Origin: Candidatus Marinacidobacterales bacterium
GTDB taxonomy: Bacteria > Acidobacteriota > Vicinamibacteria > Marinacidobacterales > DATDRI01
Direction of reading: 5' to 3'
Assembly: GCA_965219415.1 (NCBI GenBank)
Contig: CBDCNP010000001.1
Span: 192,001 to 256,000 of the forward strand
Length of the DNA: 64,000 bases
Made by a program: the position numbers and the translations under genes
Shown here: positions 1,387 to 59,650 of the stretch, in pieces
How positions within the stretch are numbered: the first letter of the stretch is position 1
Layout: each line of letters starts with the position of its first letter
The notes under the pieces: generated by a model
The model's input: only the letters and a program-made list of their open reading frames with translations
Told to the model about the DNA's origin: nothing
The model's database searches: none

Positions 1387-2761
1387 ATGGTGCCGGCTCT
1401 TTTCTCCCGACGCACCCTTCGCCGCTTTCGCGAATTGAAACTCGCGCCGCCGACGGCCCTCCTCCTCCTCGTCGTCCTCCTCGCCACTCCCCTTGGCGCG
1501 GAGATGCTCTATTTGACGAACGGCCGGCAAATCCAAGTGGAGCGTTATTGGGAAGAAGGCAACCAGGTCTTCTACGAGAGAAACGGCAGCATCTTCGGGT
1601 TTCCTAGTTCGCTCCTCGAGCGAGTGGGGCACGGCGAGGGACGCGCCGCCACCAAGAAGAAGTCAGAATCGGCGAAAGACGCCGTCGAGCCCGGATTTCG
1701 GAACCAGCCCTACGCGAAAGCCGTCGAGCAAGCACGGGCTTCAGCCGACGAAGGCGATCTCGACAAAGCCTCACACTACTACCGTCAAGCCTTACACGCC
1801 GCTCCCGAATCGGTGGTCGCCCGTGTCGAGCTTGGGGAGCTCTACCTGGAACGCGGCGGTCTGTCGGCGGCGCAGATCCAGCTGGAGCTAGCCCAAACGT
1901 AGTGCCCCAGAAGACGCGACCATTCGAGAGCTCTTGGGGGACGCCTACTACCGGCGAGGTCGCACCGCGCTCGCAATCCGAGAGTGGCAAAAGGCACTCG
2001 AGCTCGACCCGGGAGCGAGCATTCTGGACAAGCTGAAACAGGCCCTGCGGGAGAACGACCAGGACATCGACTTCGACGAGATGCGCCGGCCCCACTTCCT
2101 CATCCGCTATGACGGCGCGGTGAACCAATCCATCCGGCGAGAAGTGGCGATGGCTCTCAAGTCGGAATACGAGGAGCTAGCTCAGGAATTTCGCTTCACT
2201 CCCCAAGCTCCGGTGAAAATAACTCTTTACACGAACCGTGAGTTCAGCGAAGTCACCCACGCACCGTCCTGGGTCTCCGCTCTCAATGATGGCGAGATAC
2301 GGATCCCCGTTGAAGGGCTCGACGAATTGAACCCCAAGGTGATTCGGCTGTTGCGACACGAGCTGACCCACACCTTCATCAATGCGCGCACCGGAAACAA
2401 CTGCCCGACCTGGTTTCACGAGGGTTACGCCCAGTTGCGAGCGAACCAAATGCCGGACGGGATGTACGAGTCTCTCAAGGTGGCGAAGGAGTCGGGAGCG
2501 CTGCTGCCGCTTTGGAGCTTGGAGGGCCCGCTCCTCAGTTACTCAACGGAACAGGCGAGATTGGCCTACTATCAATCGCTTGCCGCAACGGAGTACCTCG
2601 TGAAGCGGAAGGGGAAAAATTCGTTGACCCGGATCATGGATCTGTTGGCGCGGCGCTACACCATGAACGATGCGTTGAACAAAGTCATTGGCCTCGACTA
2701 TCAAGAGCTTCAGACCGCCTGGGAAGCGGACCTCGGCCGTTACCGTCCGGGGATGCAGTAG
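1387..2761 (+). CDS. TPR-repeat plus peptidase MA-like metalloprotease (frameshifted ~1893)
   Basis: Signal peptide, TPR helices and an HELTH...WFHEG zincin motif. Removing one C from gcccaaacgt joins ORFs 1387-1902 and 1934-2761 (LELAKRSAPEDATIRELLGDAYY). Confidence 0.75.
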
Positions 2762-2861
2762 GGGTCGGGTTCTGTTTCGCGTAGCGACGCCGGGTGCAAG
2801 ACGGTGCGGACCTGATGCTGTGGAGAACTTCCGCCGAGGGCTTGGCAAGGAGGTCGAGAAA

Positions 2862-3317
2862 ATGCAGAAGTGGTTGAAGTTTTGTAGCGCAGCGGTTGTT
2901 GCGCTATCGCTAGCGGGAACCGGCTTCTTTTCTGTCCATGTCCTGGCCCAGTCGATGGGCAAGGACGCGACCTACGTCAGCCCTACCGGTGGAACCAAGC
3001 TTCGAATCCTCCTCGACGACAGCAACCTAGGCGGCTCCGAAGTCGAGGTGGCGGAGATCGAGTTTCCTCCGGGAGTCGACTCCGGCGCTCACGTGCATGG
3101 GGCAGTGGAAATCTTCTATGTCATCGAAGGCGAGCTCGAGCACATCGTCAATGGAAAGAAATACGTGCTCGGACCGGGCATGATCGATCACGTCCGTCCG
3201 CCCGACGAAGTGATCCACCGCGTCAAAGCGGACGGTCCTCCTTGTAAAGCATTGGTCATCTGGGCTCCCGGCGGCGAAGGGACCCGTATCGCCGAACAGT
3301 GGGAGGCCGAGAACTGA
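2862..3317 (+). CDS. Exported cupin-domain protein
   Basis: RBS aggagg before ATG 2862, signal peptide, cupin motifs HVHGAVEIFYVIEGE and PDEVIH. Confidence 0.8.
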   Translation: MQKWLKFCSAAVVALSLAGTGFFSVHVLAQSMGKDATYVSPTGGTKLRILLDDSNLGGSEVEVAEIEFPPGVDSGAHVHGAVEIFYVIEGELEHIVNGKKYVLGPGMIDHVRPPDEVIHRVKADGPPCKALVIWAPGGEGTRIAEQWEAEN

Positions 3318-3365
3318 GAGCGATTGATGCTCCATGGAATCTTGTCCGGGCGAGGTTCGGATGTA

Positions 3366-4694
3366 CTACCGTCCCCCCGATTCACTAGGCGTCGGGGTCC
3401 GCACTCGGCGGGCCGCGCGGTGGGTGGCGCTCGATGGCGCCATTCTTTCCGCCAGCTCTTTTATTCTCTCGAGGTACGCGTCCATGTACTCGGCCGCGAT
3501 CGGTGGGCCCGGAGGGAAGATCTGCTTGAGCGGATTCACTGGCTTCCCGTGACGAATGAGCCGGAAATCCAAGTGAGCACCGGTCGCCAAGCCGGTGGAT
3601 CCCACGTAGCCGATCACTTCTTTCTGGCCCACGCGCTTGCCGGTCCGTAGCCCCTTGGCGAAGTGAGACAGGTGTAGGTACTTGGACTGGTAACCCATCG
3701 CATGGCGGAGGGTCACCATGCGGCCCGAACCTCCTTTGGTGGAGATACCGGTCACGGTGCCGGCGGCGACCGAATGCACCGGCGTCCCCCGCGGAGCCGC
3801 ATAATCCACACCGAGATGCGGCATGCGGCGTCGATGCACCGGATGAAGCCGACTATAAGAAAACCGCGAGCTGATTCGCTGAAACTTGAGCGGTGCTCTG
3901 AGGAAAGCCTTACGCATCGACTTACCGTTAGGGTCGAAGTAACCCTTCTTCTTGCCTTCCGGATCCACGAAGAGAAAGGCGGAGAGATCGGTCGCCCCGG
4001 AAACGTAACGGGCCGCCAGAAGGTCACCGTAGCCGGCAAATCGGTCGTCGCGGTATAGCTTCTCTACGAGAAGTTCAAACCGATCCCCAGGCCGACTCTG
4101 GGTGTAAAAATCGAAGTCCCAAGCGAAGACTTCGGCGAAGGCGACAACCAAGGGCGCCGACTCTCCTAACGACCCCAGGCTTGCGAAGAGACTTCCTTGC
4201 ACCGAACCCTGGTGCGATACCTCTCGATGCTCGATGACGATGGTGAGTTGGTCACCCACCCAACCACCGTTCTCCGGGCGAACCTCATAAGTCTCGAGGG
4301 CTCCGCGATGAATCCAAATCGCTTCCACATCTGCGGCGCCGGTGTATCGGATCTCGACTTCGTCCCCGGGACGCAAGTGCCGGAGATTGACATGAGGCGT
4401 TAGGGCCTCCGCCATTTGGTGTACCTCGAGCGGAGCGAACCCGTTGCGCTGGAGAAGCGTGGCCAGCGTTTCCCCGCGACGCACACGATCGGGTACGACC
4501 ACCCACGGGTCACGTTCGGTAGACGGGAGGAAGCTGACTTCCGCTAGCTGGGGCGCTTGGAAAGTCGGCAGGTCGACAGGCGAGAAACGCTCCCACGCCG
4601 CCAAACCGACGACGCTCATCCCGTAGAGGCCAACCGCGGCCAACAAGAAGCGTCGCAGTAGGCGAAGTTTCCTACTCGGGCGTGACTTCTTCAC
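3366..4694 (-). CDS. M23 family peptidoglycan DD-endopeptidase (MepM-like)
   Basis: HLGVDYAAP, YLHLS and HLDF motifs; N-terminal membrane anchor. Confidence 0.9.
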   Translation of the reverse strand: MKKSRPSRKLRLLRRFLLAAVGLYGMSVVGLAAWERFSPVDLPTFQAPQLAEVSFLPSTERDPWVVVPDRVRRGETLATLLQRNGFAPLEVHQMAEALTPHVNLRHLRPGDEVEIRYTGAADVEAIWIHRGALETYEVRPENGGWVGDQLTIVIEHREVSHQGSVQGSLFASLGSLGESAPLVVAFAEVFAWDFDFYTQSRPGDRFELLVEKLYRDDRFAGYGDLLAARYVSGATDLSAFLFVDPEGKKKGYFDPNGKSMRKAFLRAPLKFQRISSRFSYSRLHPVHRRRMPHLGVDYAAPRGTPVHSVAAGTVTGISTKGGSGRMVTLRHAMGYQSKYLHLSHFAKGLRTGKRVGQKEVIGYVGSTGLATGAHLDFRLIRHGKPVNPLKQIFPPGPPIAAEYMDAYLERIKELAERMAPSSATHRAARRVRTPTPSESGGR

Positions 4695-5638
4695 GCTTGC
4701 GCTCCCGGAGCGACTCCGTAAAAGGCCAGGCTCTTCTCGAGACCTTGAGAGAGAGAAAAGCGCGGCTTGTAATCGAGCTCCTCGGCAAGACGTGAGATAT
4801 CGGCTTGCGAGTGGCGAACGTCACCGGCGCGGGGAGACTCGTAAACGGGTTTCGCCTTGTTCCCCACCAGTGTCGCCATCGTCTTCCAAAGATCGTTCAA
4901 GGAGATGCGATCCCCGCACCCGACGTTGTATATCCGACCCCCGGCGCGCGGTGAGTGGCAAGCGGCCAGGTTCACGTCCGCCACGTTGTCGACGTAAGTG
5001 AAGTCGCGGGTCTGTTCACCGTCGCCATAGATAGTGGGTGGCTTGCCCGATACGATGGAGTCGATGAAGCGACTGATGACGCCCGAGTACGCGGAGCTGG
5101 GATCTTGGCGCGGACCGAAGACGTTGAAGTATCGCAAGGCGACCGTTTCCAGACCGTACAATCGGTGAAACACCATGCAGTACTGTTCCCCAGTCAGCTT
5201 CGAGACCGCGTAGGGCGAGAGTGGCTCGGGCCGAACGCTTTCTTTTTTGGGAAGCTCCTCGCTGGCTCCGTATACCGAAGAAGAAGACGCATAGACGACA
5301 CGGCGGACCTTGGCTCGACTGGCGGCGTGAAGCAGCATCAACGTTCCGGTGGCATTGGCGGCATGGGACTCGAGCGGTCGCTCCACAGAACGAGGAACCG
5401 ACGGGATCGCCGCTTCATGGAAGACGAAGTCGACACCGGTGACGGCCTTTTGGACGTCCTCCGAGTCGCAAAGATCCCCCCGCTGGAGCTCGATCTGGCC
5501 TTTTACCTCCTCGAGGTTCGCCTCTCTACCGGTTGCGAAGTTATCCAGAACGCGAACTTTCTCCCCGTCCTCGAGCAATCGGCGCACTAGGCTCGAGCCA
5601 ATGAAGCCTGCACCACCGGTCACCAGAAAGAGCCCCAC
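4691..5638 (-). CDS. NAD-dependent nucleotide-sugar epimerase/dehydratase (extended SDR)
   Basis: GGAGFIGS, YAVSK, LRYFNVFGPRQDP and RDFTYV motifs. Confidence 0.92.
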   Translation of the reverse strand: MGLFLVTGGAGFIGSSLVRRLLEDGEKVRVLDNFATGREANLEEVKGQIELQRGDLCDSEDVQKAVTGVDFVFHEAAIPSVPRSVERPLESHAANATGTLMLLHAASRAKVRRVVYASSSSVYGASEELPKKESVRPEPLSPYAVSKLTGEQYCMVFHRLYGLETVALRYFNVFGPRQDPSSAYSGVISRFIDSIVSGKPPTIYGDGEQTRDFTYVDNVADVNLAACHSPRAGGRIYNVGCGDRISLNDLWKTMATLVGNKAKPVYESPRAGDVRHSQADISRLAEELDYKPRFSLSQGLEKSLAFYGVAPGAQA

Positions 5639-28973: not shown

Positions 28974-29002
28974 GCTGACGTCCAAGGGAGGTAGCGCCTG
29001 CT

Positions 29003-29371
29003 CGAGCCGTCCGTAAGCCGAGTTCTGTTCCCCCCCTTGGTTGCCCGCAGGAGGGCGACGATCATTTATCTAGCCGCGACGATTGCTCGCCGCAGTCGAG
29101 CGACCTACCCGGAAGCTTCGGACGGGCCGCCCTCGAACGCTTCCCTATTTGGTCTTGCTCCGTGCGGGGTTTGCCGTGCCTCGGATGTCACCACCCGAGC
29201 GGTGCGCTCTTACCGCACCATTTCACCCTTACCTTCCCCCGAAGGAAGAGGCGGTATATTTTCTGTGGCACTTTCCTTCCCGTCACCGGGACTGGGGGTT
29301 GCCCAGCGCACTGCCCTGGGGAGTTCGGACTTTCCTCCGGCCCGAAGGCCGGCGATCATCTGGTCGACTCG
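29003..29371 (-). ncRNA. rnpB: RNase P RNA, class A
   Basis: Minus strand has GAGGAAAGUCC, AGUGCCACAGAAA and ACAGAACUCGGCUUA; terminal P1 pairing; TATAAT at 29385-29390. Confidence 0.95.
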
Positions 29372-50206: not shown

Positions 50207-52114
50207 TCAAAGGATCACGCGCTCGCTGCCCACTCTCCGCGTCACGTGCTCTCGGTCCAACCACTCCAAGAGTGGAATGGCGTGCTTTCGAGTGACGCCC
50301 GCCAGATCCTTGAAGAAGGCGACGTCGATCTTGGGCCTTTTTTCCTTCTGCTGCTGCACGGATTGCTTCAACTCTTCGAGGGCGTCGCGATGAAAAACCA
50401 TGCCTTCGGCTACCTTGACCAGAGTCCCTTCTTGGGTGAGGAGGCGTGCGATCCGCTGGAGAAGTTTCAGATCGCGGCGGTTCTTGGAAGCGATTTCCGC
50501 CAACGCGGGCGGTTGATAGCGGGCCTTGAGGAACGTATCTCCGAGGAACGACCAAGCCTCCGCTTCCTCCGAAGACAGCTCGATACGATGGTCACTCGTT
50601 GCCACCCAATCCTTGACGGCTCGAAGCTTTCCGTTCTCGACCATACGACCGAGCGACCATTCGAAAACCTCCAAGCGTGCACGCGCCGTCGCCTTTTCTC
50701 GGAGCTCGCCCCGGGGCATTCCCTCACGCAACGGGTTGGCCTTCTGAAACGACTTCAGCTCCATTAGTATTTGCGCCGAGATTTGCTCGGCCGTCTCCGG
50801 TGCTAGAAACAACAGCGGTTTTTCCGAGACCCGAAAGACTCGTTCGTTCGAAAGCAGAACTTCGACGAGCTTCGCCAGGGAGGCGTCGTCGATACCGAGT
50901 CGTCGCGCCAAAGCGGCACCATCGAGACCGCGCGGACCCGATGTGGCTATGAACAGCGCGCACGCTTCGACTCGATCGCCCGACCGGAGCGCAGCGAGCC
51001 GCTCCACCACATCACGGCTAGTCACCGAGTGCTTCGGGGGGGATGGATCGAGGACTCGACCTCCTCCCAACGTCTCTAGAGGTGAGTAGCGTCGAATGAT
51101 GAATCGATCCAAAGCGGCGGCGACCACCGGCGTCTCGAGACGAAATTGAACGAGTGCGTGCGTCCCTGGAGCAACCGTGCCTTGGTTCCCTAAGACCCTG
51201 ACCCGGGCCACGGCGACGGCGGTCCCGATGTGGAGATGCACCCTCGCCAGATCTTTGACAGGGGTCGGAGACGATGCCAGGACCTCGAGCTCCGCATCCA
51301 GCATCAGACTGGGGAGCAGAGTACCGGGGCGCGCCAGAGTGTCTCCCCGCACCACTTCGCTCATCTCGATGCCCTGCAGATTGACGGCAGTTCGTTGACC
51401 GGCGAGCGCGCGATCTTCGGCGGCACCGTGTACTTGCAACCCGCGCACGCGGGCCTTCGTACCACGGGGCAGAATTTCCACCTCCTCATCCACCGCGAGG
51501 CTGCCCGAGGTCAACGTGCCGGTAACGACTGCCCCGAAGCCCTTCATCGTGAAGACTCGATCCACCGGTAGACGAAAGAGACCGTCGGCCGGACGGCTGT
51601 CGACTCCGGCGGCGATATCGAACAAGACACGTTTCAGCTCATCGATGCCCGCACCGGTTTTCGAAGAGACGTAAATCGTTTGGGCTTCTTCGAGGAAGCT
51701 ACCTTTGGCCAGCTCACTCATTTCCATGGCCGCGATCTCCCGGAGCTCCGGTTCAACCAAGTCCACCTTGGTAATCACCACCACGCCCTTTTTCACCCGA
51801 AGGAGACGGCAAATCTCGAAGTGCTCGCGAGTCTGAGGCATCACCGATTCGTCGGCCGCCACGACGAGCATCACCATGTCGATGCCGCCGGCACCCGCCA
51901 GCATGTTTTTTACGAAACGCTCATGCCCCGGAACATCGACGAACCCGAGGGTAATTCGTTCGGGGTCTGTTAAGAACGCGAACCCCAAGTCGACAGTGAT
52001 TCCCCTCTCTTTTTCCTCCTTCAACCGGTCGGGGTCGGTGCCGGTGAGGGCGCGCACCAACGCACTCTTGCCGTGATCGATATGTCCTGCGGTACCCACG
52101 ATGACATGTTTCAT
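50207..52114 (-). CDS. selB: Selenocysteine-specific elongation factor SelB
   Basis: [44 protein letters not shown]; C-terminal winged helix [15 protein letters not shown]...R. Confidence 0.96.
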
Positions 52115-52191
52115 GGCGTCTCCACGACATGATAGCCGACCGGCAAGGGCGGTTAAACCCTGTGCTATCATGGGATCACAAAGAGGTGTTC

Positions 52192-52995
52192 ATGACCCAA
52201 TCGAATCTCCTGTTCTTGCTTCTGTTCGCTTTCTCCACGTCGGCGGTTGCAACGACCGGTGCGGAAACCGTTCAAAACACCAGCAGCGACAAAGAGGACT
52301 CGGACGAGAACGAGATCCTTAGGGAGCTCGGCGAGATTCGCAAGGAGATCGAAACCTTGCGCAGAGAAGTAGGAGATTTGCGGAGCAAGGTAGGCGACAT
52401 CCACCGTGTTGCGGTGCGCCCCGCCCCCACCGCCCCGCCTCCACCGGACAAGGTTACTTTGGACGAGAGCCGTGCCCTCGGGAGTGCGGATGCACAGATC
52501 GCGATCGTGGAGTTCTCCGATTACCAGTGTCCGTACTGTCAGCGCTTCTTCTTACAAACGTTCCCCTCACTCAAGAAAAACTACGTCGAGACCGGCAAGG
52601 CTCGCTTTTACTTTCGAGACTTCCCTCTCGAACAGATCCACCCTCAGGCCAGATCGTCTGCCATCGCCGCCAATTGCGCGTCGCGACAAGGCGCTTATTG
52701 GGACATGCACCACGGATTGTTCGAGAATCAAAAGAGACTTGGCCCCGAGCTCTACCAGGAGTTGGCAAAGGAGATGGGGCTAGACGTAGCTGCTTTCGAA
52801 GCCTGTCTCGAAGAGCCAGACGAGGACAAGAGAGTCGATCAGGAGCTCGCCTACGGCCGAAGCCTTGCCATTCAGGGAACGCCACACTATTTCGTGGGTC
52901 GCATCGAGGACGGTCAGCTGGTCGACGTGACGCGCGTGAACGGCGCACAACCCTTCGCGGCTTTCTCGAAGGTAATCGAGCCATATCTTCAATGA
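52192..52995 (+). CDS. DsbA-family oxidoreductase
   Basis: EFSDYQCPYC, RDFPL, GTP and GAQP motifs. Confidence 0.9.
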   Translation: MTQSNLLFLLLFAFSTSAVATTGAETVQNTSSDKEDSDENEILRELGEIRKEIETLRREVGDLRSKVGDIHRVAVRPAPTAPPPPDKVTLDESRALGSADAQIAIVEFSDYQCPYCQRFFLQTFPSLKKNYVETGKARFYFRDFPLEQIHPQARSSAIAANCASRQGAYWDMHHGLFENQKRLGPELYQELAKEMGLDVAAFEACLEEPDEDKRVDQELAYGRSLAIQGTPHYFVGRIEDGQLVDVTRVNGAQPFAAFSKVIEPYLQ

Positions 52996-56488: not shown

Positions 56489-56569
56489 AAAAATAGTCCC
56501 TCCATTCCAACCGTGTTCCTCGGTCCCTGCGGGAATAGCTGACAATCCTTCGATTGCCGCCAAAACCAC

Positions 56570-56601
56570 TTGACCCTGTACCTGGGTCAAAGGTTTACAA
56601 T
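56570..56601 (+). promoter_or_regulatory. MerR-family promoter/operator
   Basis: TTGACC-20 bp-TACAAT (extended spacer) with dyad TTGACCC-N7-GGGTCAA. Confidence 0.8.
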
Positions 56602-56619
56602 GCGGGTAGGAGCAATCGA

Positions 56620-57037
56620 ATGGAAAACGACTCGTTTCTCATCGGCGAACTAGCCCAGCGGGCCAACGTCAATCGCGAGACCTTCCGTTACTATGAACGG
56701 CGGGGACTCCTCAAACCGAGCCGCCGCACCCCCTCCGGCTACCGCGTCTACCGTCCGGAAGCCGAAGAACGGCTAGGTTTCATCAGACGTGCCCAAGCTT
56801 TCGGATTCACACTCGATGAGATCTCAGTGCTACTCGGACTGCGGCCCGACAATCCTCGGAGCTGTCGTCGCGTCTTGGGGATCCTCGACCAGAAAGTAGA
56901 AGAGCTCGCCCAACAAGATTACCGAAATGAAGCGCTTCCATCGGCAAATGTCCAGCTATCGCGACCATTGCGCTCAGACGATTGACAAGGGTTCGAGATG
57001 CCCGGTGATTGCAGACGTATCCAACGTGAAGATCTGA
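56620..57037 (+). CDS. merR: MerR-family metal-responsive regulator (frameshift ~56911)
   Basis: IGELA...RYYERRGLL...GYRVY. Corrected C-terminus gives three Cys (SCRRV, DHC, RCPVI), like Hg-type MerR. Confidence 0.82.
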
Positions 57038-57046
57038 GGAGATATC

Positions 57047-57385
57047 ATGTCCAAGTGGACCGGTTTCGGAGCCGTTGGCGCAAGCCTCGGGGTAGCTCTG
57101 AGCTGGTTGTGCTGCCTCCCTTTCGCGGCTGCATTGGGGGCGGGAGTCGCGGCGGCAGGAGCCGCGCTCACACCACTTCAGCCCTTCATGGCTCTTGCCA
57201 GCGTTTCGCTGCTCGCCATTGCTTTCGTTCAAACACTAAGGGCGCGGGGGTGCGAGGATGGCGAGACCTGCAGCGCCCTATCGAAGCCGCGTCGTTGGCT
57301 CTTTCTAGCGGCAGTCACGGTAGCGACGATCCTCCTGATCACGGTGCCGTACTGGAGCGCCCATCTCATTTACTGGACCCTGTGA
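57047..57385 (+). CDS. merT: MerT-like mercury/metal transport protein
   Basis: Three TM helices, CC pair in TM1 (WLCCLP), loop pair CEDGETC. Confidence 0.8.
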   Translation: MSKWTGFGAVGASLGVALSWLCCLPFAAALGAGVAAAGAALTPLQPFMALASVSLLAIAFVQTLRARGCEDGETCSALSKPRRWLFLAAVTVATILLITVPYWSAHLIYWTL

Positions 57386-57404
57386 CCGCCTGGAGGTGCA
57401 CGCC

Positions 57405-58010
57405 ATGAATCGACGGATTCTAGTAGGAAGCTTAGCTGTGGCAACGCTCGCGGTTCTTTCTGGCGTCGCAGTTCTTCGGAGCTCAGGCGGCAAATCCAGT
57501 TGGAAGGAGCTCGGCTCCGTTAAAGAGCTTAGAGAGCAGTTCAACCAAGACGAGGGTTCGATTCGGATCGTTCTGCTGTTGTCTCCGACGTGACCGGTTT
57601 GTGTCGCGGGGGCCCGGTGGGTCCAATCCAATATTCTCGAGGCTAATCCGGACGCCAACGTCAAGGTCTATGCGGTCTCCTTTCGCATGCTCGCGAGCGA
57701 CCGCATCGCCAAATGGATGGTCGAGCCTGACAATCTTCTCTCGGATCCGCGCACCTTGCATTACTGGGACGAGGAAAAACTCGCTGGACGATACTACGAG
57801 GAGCGCGTGACTCAACTTGGCGATCCCGGCAACGGACGCATCGAATGGGATGCCTATTTTCTCTATTGTCCCGATGCCACATGGGGAGAGGAACCACCGG
57901 AACACATCAGCTGGGGTCGAACCATCGTAGACTCCCGCGAACGGCTGCTCCGAGACTTCACCGCTCTGCTGCACTCCCCTGGAACGACCGAGACCCGTCG
58001 CCAAGAATGA
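57405..58010 (+). CDS. Predicted selenoprotein: membrane-anchored thioredoxin-fold protein with UxxC motif (201 aa, Sec63)
   Basis: ORFs 57396-57593 and 57687-58010 share a frame. Read-through of TGA 57591-57593 gives IVLLLSPT-U-PVC-VAGARWV with no other stop; SECIS-like hairpin follows. Confidence 0.85.
57594..57624 (+). promoter_or_regulatory. Putative bacterial SECIS element
   Basis: GGGCCC[GGU]GGGUCC hairpin, G-first loop 22 nt after UGA. Confidence 0.7.
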
Positions 58011-58016
58011 AGCCTG

Positions 58017-58455
58017 ATGGATTGCTGTCAGCGTGAAGGCGAATCAGTCGACCGCACCTGCCCTCGATGCGGCTCAGTGGGGGCGATCCGTCCAGCTGGT
58101 AACGGTCAACAGCCTTCTAACGGCTCGCGCCCTGGAAAGACTCACTGTGAAGGAGCACCGGTTCTGCGCGACGCCGGACTGCGAGGTCGTCTACTTCTCC
58201 GAAGTGACACTCTTTGGGCGCGAAGACGTTCGAGTACCCGTGTTTCAGAAGGAGCCGTCTGGCCGCCGGATGGTCTGCTACTGCTTCGAGGTTTCCGAGG
58301 ATGACGCCGACGCCGCAGCGGAATCGCGTATCCGCACACACGTGCGGGCTGGGCGCTGCGCTTGCGAGTTGCGAAACCCGGAGGGTAGATGCTGTTTGGG
58401 CAACCTCTGGGCCGTTACCCGTACCACGGTAGGGGAGACCTCACAGAATGGTTGA
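58017..58455 (+). CDS. Cys-rich CopZ-N-terminal-like Zn/[2Fe-2S]-binding protein (frameshift ~58083)
   Basis: CPRCG...FCATPDCEVVYF...VCYCF...CACELRNPEGRCCLGN. Confidence 0.75.
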
Positions 58456-58833
58456 GACCTGCTCGGCTTCCGACAACGATCTGGCTGGCCGCTGGTCGAG
58501 CTTGATCTCGATCTGGTGGCTCCCTGTAGCGGCGATGATCGCTGCGATGTTCGTAAACTCGCCGCTGCGAACCGCGACGTGGACAATTGCCCTGGGCTGG
58601 ACGGGGGGGCCTGTCTCTTGAACGCATACCGCTGTGGTCGTGTGCACTGCTACTTCACTGGTCCGGCCTACATTCTTGGAGCCCTGACGTCTTTGCTCCA
58701 CGGACTGGACGTCGTGTCGCTCGGGTCCCATGGCTGGGCGTGGATCGGCTACACACTCATTGCCGGAAGCGTGCTCTTGAACTACGTTCCGGAGTGGGTC
58801 TGGGAAAGTGTGCCAATCTTAGTTGGGAATTGA
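58448..58833 (+). CDS. Membrane protein with CLLNAYRCGRVHCYFTGP motif (frameshift in G-run ~58605; 3' end abuts IS)
   Basis: ATG overlaps the upstream gene end; about four TM helices; three clustered Cys. Confidence 0.65.
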
Positions 58834-59650
58834 AACGGCTCCAAACCCCGTGGTTTGATGGCGTTGGACAAAACAAAATCAAGCCGCGAAGAAAGGAGCC
58901 GAGATGGGAAGTCTGCTACGTTCGGTCAAGAAACGCAAGAAGTCGCGTCGTTTGGGTGAGGTCGAGATGGTGAGGCACGAGGATTACGGGGAACTCGCGC
59001 TGGACGCCAAGGTAGAGATGATCCGTTGGTTGGTCCCCCTTGGTCTAATGCACGTTCACGAGTTGCTCGACGACGAAGTGAAGGCGTTGGCGGGAGAGCG
59101 ATACTCTCGCAAGGACGAGCTGGAGCGCGGTCGCCGTCCCGGAAGCAACCCGGGCACGGTAGGGCTTGGCGGCCAGCGGGTACCGATCCGTGTGCCACGG
59201 GTTCGGAGCATCGAGGGAGGAGAGATTCCGCTTCGCTGCTACGAGGCGGTGAGCCACGGCGGTGAGGTGAATGATCTTCTGCTGAAACGAGTTCTCTACG
59301 GAATCTCTTGTCGCAACTACGAGGCGGCAGCGGAAGCGATTCCGGGCGCCATCGGGCTGTCGAGCTCAACGGTGTCCGTCGATGATCACCAGCAGACCCT
59401 GGGAGATATCGAGTCCCCGCTCGAGCAGTGAACGCAGGAACGGCGTCAACACCTGCGCGTTCTCCGTGTCCGTCTCCACGAAGCCCAAGAAGCGTTTTTC
59501 CCCGCAAAGCGTGATGCCCAGAGCCACGACCATCGTTGCCTCGGCGAATGTCTTCCCATCCAGAAACAGCGCCACCACATCCTCGCCGGTCAGATCCCGT
59601 TCCTGCATCTCCCGCAGCTTCGCAGCGCTCGCTTGCACGAACCCTCGGGA
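58804..59650 (+). mobile_element. IS256/Mutator-like insertion sequence remnant with internal inversion and 3' deletion
   Basis: Transposase 58904-59377 (IRVPRVR, GISCRNY, LSSSTVS) continues on the minus strand 59650-59375 (SRGFVQ...LFLDGKTF...VALGIT...IIDG). Left boundary approximate. Confidence 0.8.

Follow-up and report, generated by a model that had tools for sequence, protein, structure and literature searches.

Among the genes of classical mer operons, none co-occur more tightly than merP and merT (R = 0.78 in the available text of PMC3466566). Selenolates bind mercury very strongly, and published abstracts note that mercurials have an affinity for both selenol and thiol groups. In the accessible parts of the selenoprotein literature, some of the known thioredoxin-like selenoproteins with a UxxC motif (U, selenocysteine, Sec) are found in heavy-metal settings, the SAO system being one, and Sec forms are also recorded for the TlpA-type family (available text of PMC13188914). 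Here we describe a gene, designated X, which very probably encodes a selenoprotein with such a motif and which directly follows a MerT-like gene in a 64,000-nucleotide stretch of DNA from a Candidatus Marinacidobacterales bacterium (contig CBDCNP010000001.1, positions 192,001 to 256,000; hereafter the window). An earlier sequence-only reading of this DNA had proposed at this place a UxxC protein of the thioredoxin fold, extracytoplasmic and either redox-active or metal-binding; the gene, its frame, the SPT-tga-PVC motif and the hairpin behind it all lie where that reading had put them.

An in-frame TGA within a conserved coding sequence

When TGA is read as U, the translation of X has 201 residues, with U63 placed within IRIVLLLSPT-U-PVC. 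Translation table 11 yields only two fragments in this region, 57396-57593 (65 residues) and 57687-58010 (107 residues). A scan for related loci with one genome per species gave 23 loci, 21 of which cover the site; of the other two, L022 holds only the C-terminal half of X and L023 lies at a contig edge. TGA occupies the identical codon in all 21 site-covering loci (22 of 22 sequences with the window), a count that comes from patterns built on close relatives of a Sec form and is not the Sec fraction of the family. These loci are spread over Acidobacteriota (14), Chloroflexota (3), Neomarinimicrobiota (2), Binatia (1) and Xenobia (1).

The sequences on the two sides of the TGA behave alike. 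In the 22 sequences, the entropies at the three codon positions are 0.76/0.40/1.51 over the 17 codons 5' of the TGA and 0.80/0.54/1.43 over the 28 codons 3' of it, and no other in-frame stop is found in 990 codons. By these statistics both flanks are coding in one frame and under purifying selection.

The residue expected at the site is given by the homologs. Searching a word-indexed protein database with the read-through form of X returned 21 homologs, four of which (P0014, P0015, P0016 and P0018) read SPTCPVC across the site and one of which (P0012) has W there, while 16 span only the part after the site, five of these starting two residues past the TGA. A family profile (A4, 25 sequences) was then compared with 1.84 billion representatives clustered at 50% identity and recovered 1,992 proteins at E ≤ 1e-3 and 971 at E ≤ 1e-10. 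Of the 150 best among the 1,992 representatives, 70 span the Sec column, with Cys in 65 of them, W in two, S in two and G in one; the remaining 80 begin past it. The Cys forms read SPTCPxC exactly at the position of the UGA, as would be expected if, as had been proposed, the UGA takes the place of the first Cys of a CxxC motif; homologs with Cys and homologs with TGA both exist at this site, whose absence would have refuted the sequence-only reading. About half of the best-scoring family representatives are probably Sec forms.

The same comparison shows how the gene has been handled in the databases. With U at profile position 31, 85 of the 150 best representatives match from their own residue 1-5, and their matches start at profile positions 32-65 in 80 cases, 1-10 in four and 11-31 in one. 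Because 80 of the 85 matches that start at the protein's own N-terminus begin just past U, we conclude that the entries have been cut at the TGA. Public records of X, which carry the name "hypothetical protein" and include NCBI entries of 113-120 residues, hold only the C-terminal 107-145 residues, and the splitting by gene callers that had been anticipated from the single sequence is indeed what the databases contain. Gene X is in this sense systematically mis-annotated in public records.

We also examined how Sec and Cys forms are distributed in a quick tree of 93 rows (the 63 of alignment A5 plus 30 truncated forms picked by rank). The tree is otherwise poorly resolved, but the Sec-like and Cys labels need 16 changes on it, compared with 31.3 after shuffling (0 of 500 shuffles as low), and its supported branches force at least three Sec/Cys changes; one well-supported clade joins L012 (Sec) with four Cys forms. 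The truncated forms group with the verified Sec forms.

A factor for decoding the UGA is encoded close by, the gene for SelB, the Sec-specific elongation factor, lying 5.4 kb upstream of X (Table 1). Matches to NCBIfam were sought with 71 of the 76 greedily chosen open reading frames (ORFs) of the window; the five omitted lie in or over 56554-58627, two of them having been scanned separately and three being overlapping-frame or antisense. A genetic code in which TGA is a sense codon is excluded because TGA ends 11 of the 26 family-matched ORFs of the window, those of X and of the MerT-like gene among them. With Sec coding strongly supported by the sequence comparisons, we are highly confident that X is a genuine Sec-encoding gene, and selenium is presumably incorporated at U63.

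The hairpin downstream of the UGA

The hairpin has a stem of 6 bp, starts 16 nucleotides 3' of the UGA and has a loop that begins 22 nucleotides after it. In the available text of PMC13188914, the consensus for a bacterial selenocysteine insertion sequence (SECIS) is a loop of 3-9 nucleotides, a stem of at least 4 bp, a G followed by G or U early in the loop and a spacing of 16-37 nucleotides, and the hairpin of X agrees with it in each respect. All 22 sequences have G as the first loop base, followed by G in 14 and by U in 8.

Pairing was scored in an ungapped alignment of the TGA plus 57 nucleotides from the 22 sequences, with columns 20-25 set against columns 29-34. The stem is paired in 95.5% of 132 cells, compared with an average of 88.9% in shuffles, none of 500 of which reaches the observed value, in a region where the hairpin overlies conserved codons of related sequences, which may alone inflate such shuffle statistics. 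Registers slid by 1-3 columns are paired in only 31.8-59.1% of cells. The pair 21-33, which joins the wobble base of a Gly codon to that of a Val codon, is C-G in 18 sequences, G-C in two, G-U in one and U-A in one; the pair 20-34 is G-C in 20, C-G in one and unpaired in one. Two pairs are changed on both sides, a count that 25 of 500 shuffles also attain. RNAalifold independently predicts the same stem.

The encoded residues point in the same direction. Across 17 Sec forms, the six hairpin-encoded residues (G69-Q74) show a mean entropy of 0.52, versus 1.46 for the rest of the domain; across 46 Cys forms the same residues have 1.95, versus 2.19. Position 71 is Arg in 15 of the 17 Sec forms and in 10 of the 46 Cys forms. 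A constraint on residues seen in Sec forms only is what a constraint on the RNA confined to Sec forms would give. What had been drawn as a SECIS-like hairpin from one sequence is thus a conserved and covarying element, consistent with the published bacterial SECIS rules.

No SECIS family matches were obtained from Rfam, either at the gathering thresholds or at E ≤ 10. An alternative long-range stem between columns 7-12 and 33-38 was considered and rejected (71.2% paired, compared with 68.5% after shuffling; 34 of 500 shuffles do at least as well).

Fold and location of the protein

The N-terminus of X is strongly hydrophobic, with a Kyte-Doolittle mean over 15 residues of 2.49 from residue 10. 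Of the 26 rows of alignment A3, 22 have a hydrophobic segment at the N-terminus and the other four are N-terminally incomplete, which bears out the signal or anchor suggested by the sequence-only reading; lipobox-like motifs occur in X of L004 and L016. The location of the domain can be read from a natural fusion. In L010 (4644-5489), a MerT-like sequence continues through its third helix in frame into X. The resulting ORF has 282 codons and one TGA, and in it the last helix of MerT stands in place of the N-terminal hydrophobic segment of X. The accepted topology of MerT, applied to this fusion, places X outside the cytoplasmic membrane, since the fusion joins X to MerT's third helix. X is therefore likely an extracytoplasmic protein, anchored N-terminally on the outer face of the cytoplasmic membrane.

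Sequence searches of Pfam and PDB with the X family returned nothing significant, and the matches that recur below threshold are nearly all of thioredoxin type. Among 63 members, such Pfam matches were to Redoxin (5), Thioredoxin_4 (5), AhpC-TSA (2), DSBA (1) and BrxC (1), the best being Redoxin at E = 0.0039. In PDB, profiles A4 and A5 matched 1a8l, 2l5o, 1fo5 and 1j08 at E = 0.08-0.23, with a best thioredoxin-fold E of 0.077. Matches to RAP in PDB were discarded as a short chance motif.

Comparison of profiles was more informative. For this purpose we used a TlpA family profile of 56 sequences, seeded with the TlpA-like gene that lies beside X in L007. hhalign aligned the X family to it with a probability of 89.2% (P 2.2e-6, score 46.0, 122 columns), over a span that begins with strand 1 and the CxxC, the latter at the start of helix 1, and extends as far as the C-terminal helix. 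The control scores were 17.4 and 19.1 for reversed profiles, at most 24.1 for forty column-shuffled profiles and 14.2 for the MerT-like family. Against a single TlpA-like sequence the probability was only 10.6%, and the family profile is needed to see the relationship.

One hallmark of the fold is replaced. The cis-Pro column of TlpA aligns with D149 of a conserved W148-D149 pair. This position is taken by Asp in 61 of 63 members, by Asn in one, by Gly in one and by Pro in none, the alignment confidence being low at this Asp/cis-Pro column and 0.6-0.9 in the adjoining strand. X accordingly has no cis-Pro at the start of strand 3, where thioredoxin folds are expected to carry one. Cis-Pro is more conserved than the CxxC itself and may prevent metal binding by CxxC, according to the available part of Atkinson and Babbitt (PMC2757866). 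Judging from the profile alignment, we hold with good confidence that X is a divergent TlpA-like thioredoxin-fold domain. Of the fold assignment made from the single sequence, the profile-profile match to TlpA-type proteins upholds the thioredoxin character, while no Pfam threshold was reached.

A large family without a name

X belongs to a large unnamed family, without a Pfam or NCBIfam model. X itself has no Pfam match and no meaningful NCBIfam match at E ≤ 0.1, where a single chance hit to IF-2 beta appeared. Database copies that bear a name are called "hypothetical protein", the exception being one fusion called "copper chaperone". A search with the Cys homolog P0024 placed 27 unnamed hypotheticals among the 30 nearest protein clusters; the nearest named clusters, TlpA, AhpC-TSA and Thioredoxin_8, came at 0.86 and serve as a lead only. 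A plasmid search with P0024 gave no match, and a search for longer homologs of X gave only two proteins.

The family has no evident counterpart among the 119 selenoprotein families tabulated in the available part of the 2026 review (PMC13188914), a comparison that covers those families having Pfam or NCBIfam models. The accessible texts of deep-Sep (PMC12013277) and BSepDB (PMC13326102) make no mention of it, the first 4 million characters of the BSepDB supplement contain no "SPTU", and our literature search found no description of the family. X adds a selenoprotein to Acidobacteriota, Chloroflexota and Binatia, phyla to which selenoproteome surveys have given little coverage.

Gene neighbourhood and domain fusions

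Along the window, tRNA-Leu is followed in turn by a MerR-family regulator, the MerT-like gene, X, a CopZ-N-terminal-type gene and a small Cys-rich membrane protein gene (Table 1). The MerT-like gene and X look like one operon because X begins only 20 nucleotides past the stop of the former (57383-57385). The Cys residues of the MerT-like protein are invariant in alignment A7.

Neighbours were counted over the 21 loci by tblastn at E ≤ 1e-3, and 123 flanking ORFs from 20 loci were scanned with Pfam and NCBIfam, L019 being omitted because it nearly duplicates L017. In 10 of the 21 loci the gene immediately upstream of X is MerT-like; MerR-family genes occur in seven and CopZ-N-type genes in six. 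In L007 (Blastocatellia, 930-2263), X is directly followed by genes for a MerB-like protein (Pfam MerB, 108.8 bits) and for a reductase of the TlpA family. L016 (Chloroflexota, 1826-5387) encodes, in this order, MerA (504 bits, cutoff 454.45), a multi-helix membrane protein that is CcdA-like and has no Pfam hit, and a lipoprotein-type X with TGA. A MerC-like gene adjoins X in L005, CsoR-type regulators are found in L009, and small thioredoxin-like genes or a TlpA-like gene stand beside X in L005 and L007. An HMA (MerP-like) gene was found only in L012, that is in 1 of 23 loci, and not in the window. Intact homologs of the small Cys-rich membrane protein occur downstream of X in L014 and L010, and this protein may be a further member of the X system.

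Fusions other than that of L010 place the domain in similar company. In P0113, X (cut after the Sec site) precedes MerA (516.7 bits versus a cutoff of 454.45, C-terminal Cys pair present), and P0108 consists of a signal peptide, an HMA domain and then X. P0029 and P0028 have two X domains together with an HMA and/or a DF-family domain. In P0053, P0057 and P0181, a multi-helix membrane domain with Cys-in-helix motifs precedes X, and a homolog of this membrane domain lies between MerA and X in L016; its sole family lead is DsbD_TM at E = 0.42, which is not significant. A further architecture, that of P0180 (832 residues), joins a Cys-form X to a Cys-rich linker, a methyltransferase and an FGE-sulfatase-type domain and is unexplained.

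Table 1. Features of gene X and its surroundings in the window (positions count from the first nucleotide of the window)
Feature	Position	Strand	Remarks
Gene X (putative selenoprotein)	57405..58010	+	201 codons plus stop; start ATG 57405; one in-frame TGA crossed; terminal stop TGA 58008-58010
Ribosome-binding site GGAGG of X	57392..57396	+	8 nt before ATG 57405; read from sequence
N-terminal hydrophobic segment of X	57417..57476	+	After MNRR; about residues 5-24; signal-anchor or signal peptide
Predicted selenocysteine codon TGA (U63)	57591..57593	+	First position of U-P-V-C; TGA in 22/22 sequences
C66 codon of X	57600-57602	+	Second residue of the UxxC pair
SECIS-like hairpin	57610..57624	+	GGGCCC 57610-57615; loop GGU 57616-57618; GGGUCC 57619-57624
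SelB, Sec-specific elongation factor	50210..52171	-	TIGR00475, 376 bits versus cutoff 242.25; model positions 1-578 of 581
MerR-family metal-sensing regulator	56620..57037	+	Pfam MerR_1, 64.5 bits; frame-disrupted near 56915
MerT-like membrane protein	57047..57385	+	CC pair in first helix, C-x5-C loop; proposed partner of X
CopZ-N-terminal-type (zf_CopZ / CopZ_Nterm_CC) putative metallochaperone	58017..58455	+	NF047645, 109.6 bits (cutoff 100); zf_CopZ, 49.1 bits
Small Cys-rich four-helix membrane protein	58448..58833	+	Frame-disrupted at G7 run 58603-58609; no family match

The genes around X in this copy are partly broken. Compared with intact relatives, the MerR-like, CopZ-N-like and small membrane protein genes are frame-disrupted, two of the breaks lying in G runs, whereas X and the MerT-like gene are intact. 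Relative to L001, the regulator gene has one extra base near 56915, which puts the C-terminal metal-loop Cys pair in another frame; its NCBIfam matches to ZntR, MerR and CadR all stay under their cutoffs. The reading frame of the CopZ-N-terminal-type gene breaks at the G run 58079-58083; the L001 ortholog of this gene is in a single frame. The breaks may reflect decay of the cluster or homopolymer errors of the assembly.

Some further observations concern the surroundings of X. Behind the cluster, an ORF at 58904-59431 (plus strand) resembles by eye a transposase fragment. A reading of the cluster as a genomic island was dropped, there being no att-like repeat and no GC anomaly. The L022 locus (4822-5632) looks degenerate, with a MerR fragment, the C-terminal half of X and then a CopZ-N-type gene. 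Adjoining SelB is a DsbG-like, Rcas_1661-family thioredoxin-like lipoprotein (52129-52992, plus strand; NF041057, 120 bits, cutoff 190), which reads CPYC and is thus a Cys form of a family that has Sec forms. Elsewhere in the window, 28999-29371 (minus strand) is an ordinary bacterial RNase P RNA of class A (300.9 bits).

Proposed function and alternative explanations

We propose that SelB would decode UGA-63 as selenocysteine, recognising the downstream hairpin via the G-G/U of its loop. The U63-x-x-C66 pair, beside the invariant Asp at the place of cis-Pro, would capture Hg(II) or another thiophilic metal ion, and ligand exchange would then move the ion from X to the Cys-Cys pair that the neighbouring MerT-like transporter carries in its helix 1. 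X would in this way fill the role that MerP has in classical mer operons, and in relatives the domain would replace NmerA before MerA. The selenolate could permit capture of Hg(II) at lower concentrations. On balance we lean towards such a Sec/Cys capture of a soft metal with hand-off to MerT rather than redox catalysis, with metal binding, the identity of the metal and the transfer all read from gene context. Of the two functions named by the sequence-only reading, redox or metal-binding, the gene context makes metal handling, within a mer-like system, the more likely.

A wider version of this proposal is attractive, and we put it forward only tentatively. X might found a large unrecognised family in which a thioredoxin fold has lost its cis-Pro and become a carrier of Hg(II) or another soft metal, displacing HMA domains on both sides of the membrane, and it might be the first selenoprotein dedicated to mer-type mercury capture. 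If the metal-carrier reading is true, many environmental mer-type systems run without MerP and use a Sec/Cys thioredoxin-like carrier in its stead, and selenium would serve soil Acidobacteriota and Chloroflexota as a means of scavenging Hg(II). It would then bear on mercury uptake and detoxification by soil bacteria and on the coupling of selenium and mercury cycling, and would show a redox fold turned into a metal chaperone through the loss of cis-Pro. The natural occurrence of Sec and Cys versions side by side makes the question directly testable.

Several observations weigh against the proposal. At least one mer-type neighbour is present in 13 of the 21 loci and none in eight; MerA is missing from the window and lies within 5 kb of X at only one of the 21 loci. 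The MerT-like protein of the window scores 21.9 bits with Pfam MerT, for which the cutoff is 32.9, with orthologs at other loci reaching up to 59.1 bits, and three of the five genes of the window's cluster are frame-disrupted. As regards Sec insertion, the 64-kb window contains no selA, selD or tRNA-Sec, its sole tRNA being tRNA-Leu; the hairpin stem is short, and single-sequence folding finds it no more stable than shuffles (z = 0.58 and similar). On the same side stand the lack of significant Pfam and PDB matches and the limits given above on the locus count, on the shuffle statistics and on the alignment at cis-Pro.

The strongest competitor keeps the selenoprotein and changes its task. X could be an extracytoplasmic thiol:disulfide (selenylsulfide) reductase of the TlpA/ResA type, which would be reduced by a membrane conduit and in turn reduce Cys residues of the MerT-like protein, of envelope proteins or of another substrate. 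The profile similarity to TlpA-type reductases speaks for this and against metal capture, as does the CcdA-like domain that is fused or adjacent to X (P0053, P0057, P0181, L016) and fits an electron relay equally well, although its DsbD_TM lead is not significant. UxxC is also the typical redox motif of selenoproteins in the available text of PMC13188914, and TlpA-like and small thioredoxin-like genes stand beside X in L007 and L005. Against the reductase stand the loss of the cis-Pro, with Asp in its place in 61 of 63 members, and the positions that X occupies, after merT, fused to MerT and before MerA, which are places of HMA domains. MerT, moreover, is not known to relay electrons. We regard the reductase as unlikely, if still a serious contender, and continue to favour metal capture and hand-off.

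It is very improbable that the TGA is a true stop, with the locus reduced to a disrupted gene or a pair of small ORFs from which the source organism makes no full-length protein. The three frame-disrupted neighbours and the selA, selD and tRNA-Sec genes not seen in the window would suit such a history, but a null mutation would not be retained at one codon in all 21 site-covering loci, which span five phyla and show purifying selection on either side of it. A C-terminal fragment by itself would be without strand 1 and the CxxC, and SelB is present. Least probable of all is read-through with a residue other than Sec (Trp or Gly by a changed code, or Cys or Trp by near-cognate suppression), for which one could cite the W of P0012 and P0030, taken here as TGA under another gene-caller code, and against which stand the use of TGA as a terminator in the window, the predominance of Cys at the aligned position and the joint presence of a SECIS-type hairpin and SelB.

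Comparison with known systems

By fold, the closest relatives of X are TlpA, ResA and CcmG (Pfam Redoxin, AhpC-TSA). X shares with them an N-terminal anchor, an extracytoplasmic domain and fold elements that align over the 122 columns. It differs in that 0 of 63 members reach the Pfam cutoff, in having SPT(U/C)PxC instead of WCxxC and the Asp of the W-D pair in place of cis-Pro, and in a context that is mer-like and not that of cytochrome maturation.

By position, the closest counterparts are MerP and NmerA. Like them, X is predicted to be exported and is encoded right after merT, carries a Cys-type pair spaced by two residues, and occurs both fused to MerT (L010; compare the MerTP model NF033556) and as an N-terminal module of MerA (P0113). 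Unlike them, it has an unrelated fold with no HMA match in Pfam or NCBIfam, about 140 residues compared with about 70, and in many members Sec as the first ligand. X is an analog of MerP and NmerA by position and not a member of their family.

Among known selenoproteins, SaoT (NF040730), the DsbG-like family (NF041057), the HUIPC-motif family (NF047660) and the thiol:disulfide interchange family (PF13098) resemble X in having UxxC at the start of helix 1, Cys homologs and a SECIS just downstream; X departs from these UxxC families in giving no model match at E ≤ 0.1, in its flanking motif and in being without cis-Pro. The "thiol-disulfide isomerase-like protein" of the Sargasso Sea (four sequences, no COG or Pfam, cd02966 in the review) was set against X by description only and may overlap with it. 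Finally, the MerT/CopZ fusion-like selenoprotein NF045683 and the "putative mercuric transport protein" are, like X, instances of Sec in transport systems of the Hg type. In MerT-family selenoproteins the Sec lies in the transporter or in an HMA tail, whereas here the MerT-like protein has Cys only and the Sec is carried by its separate partner X.

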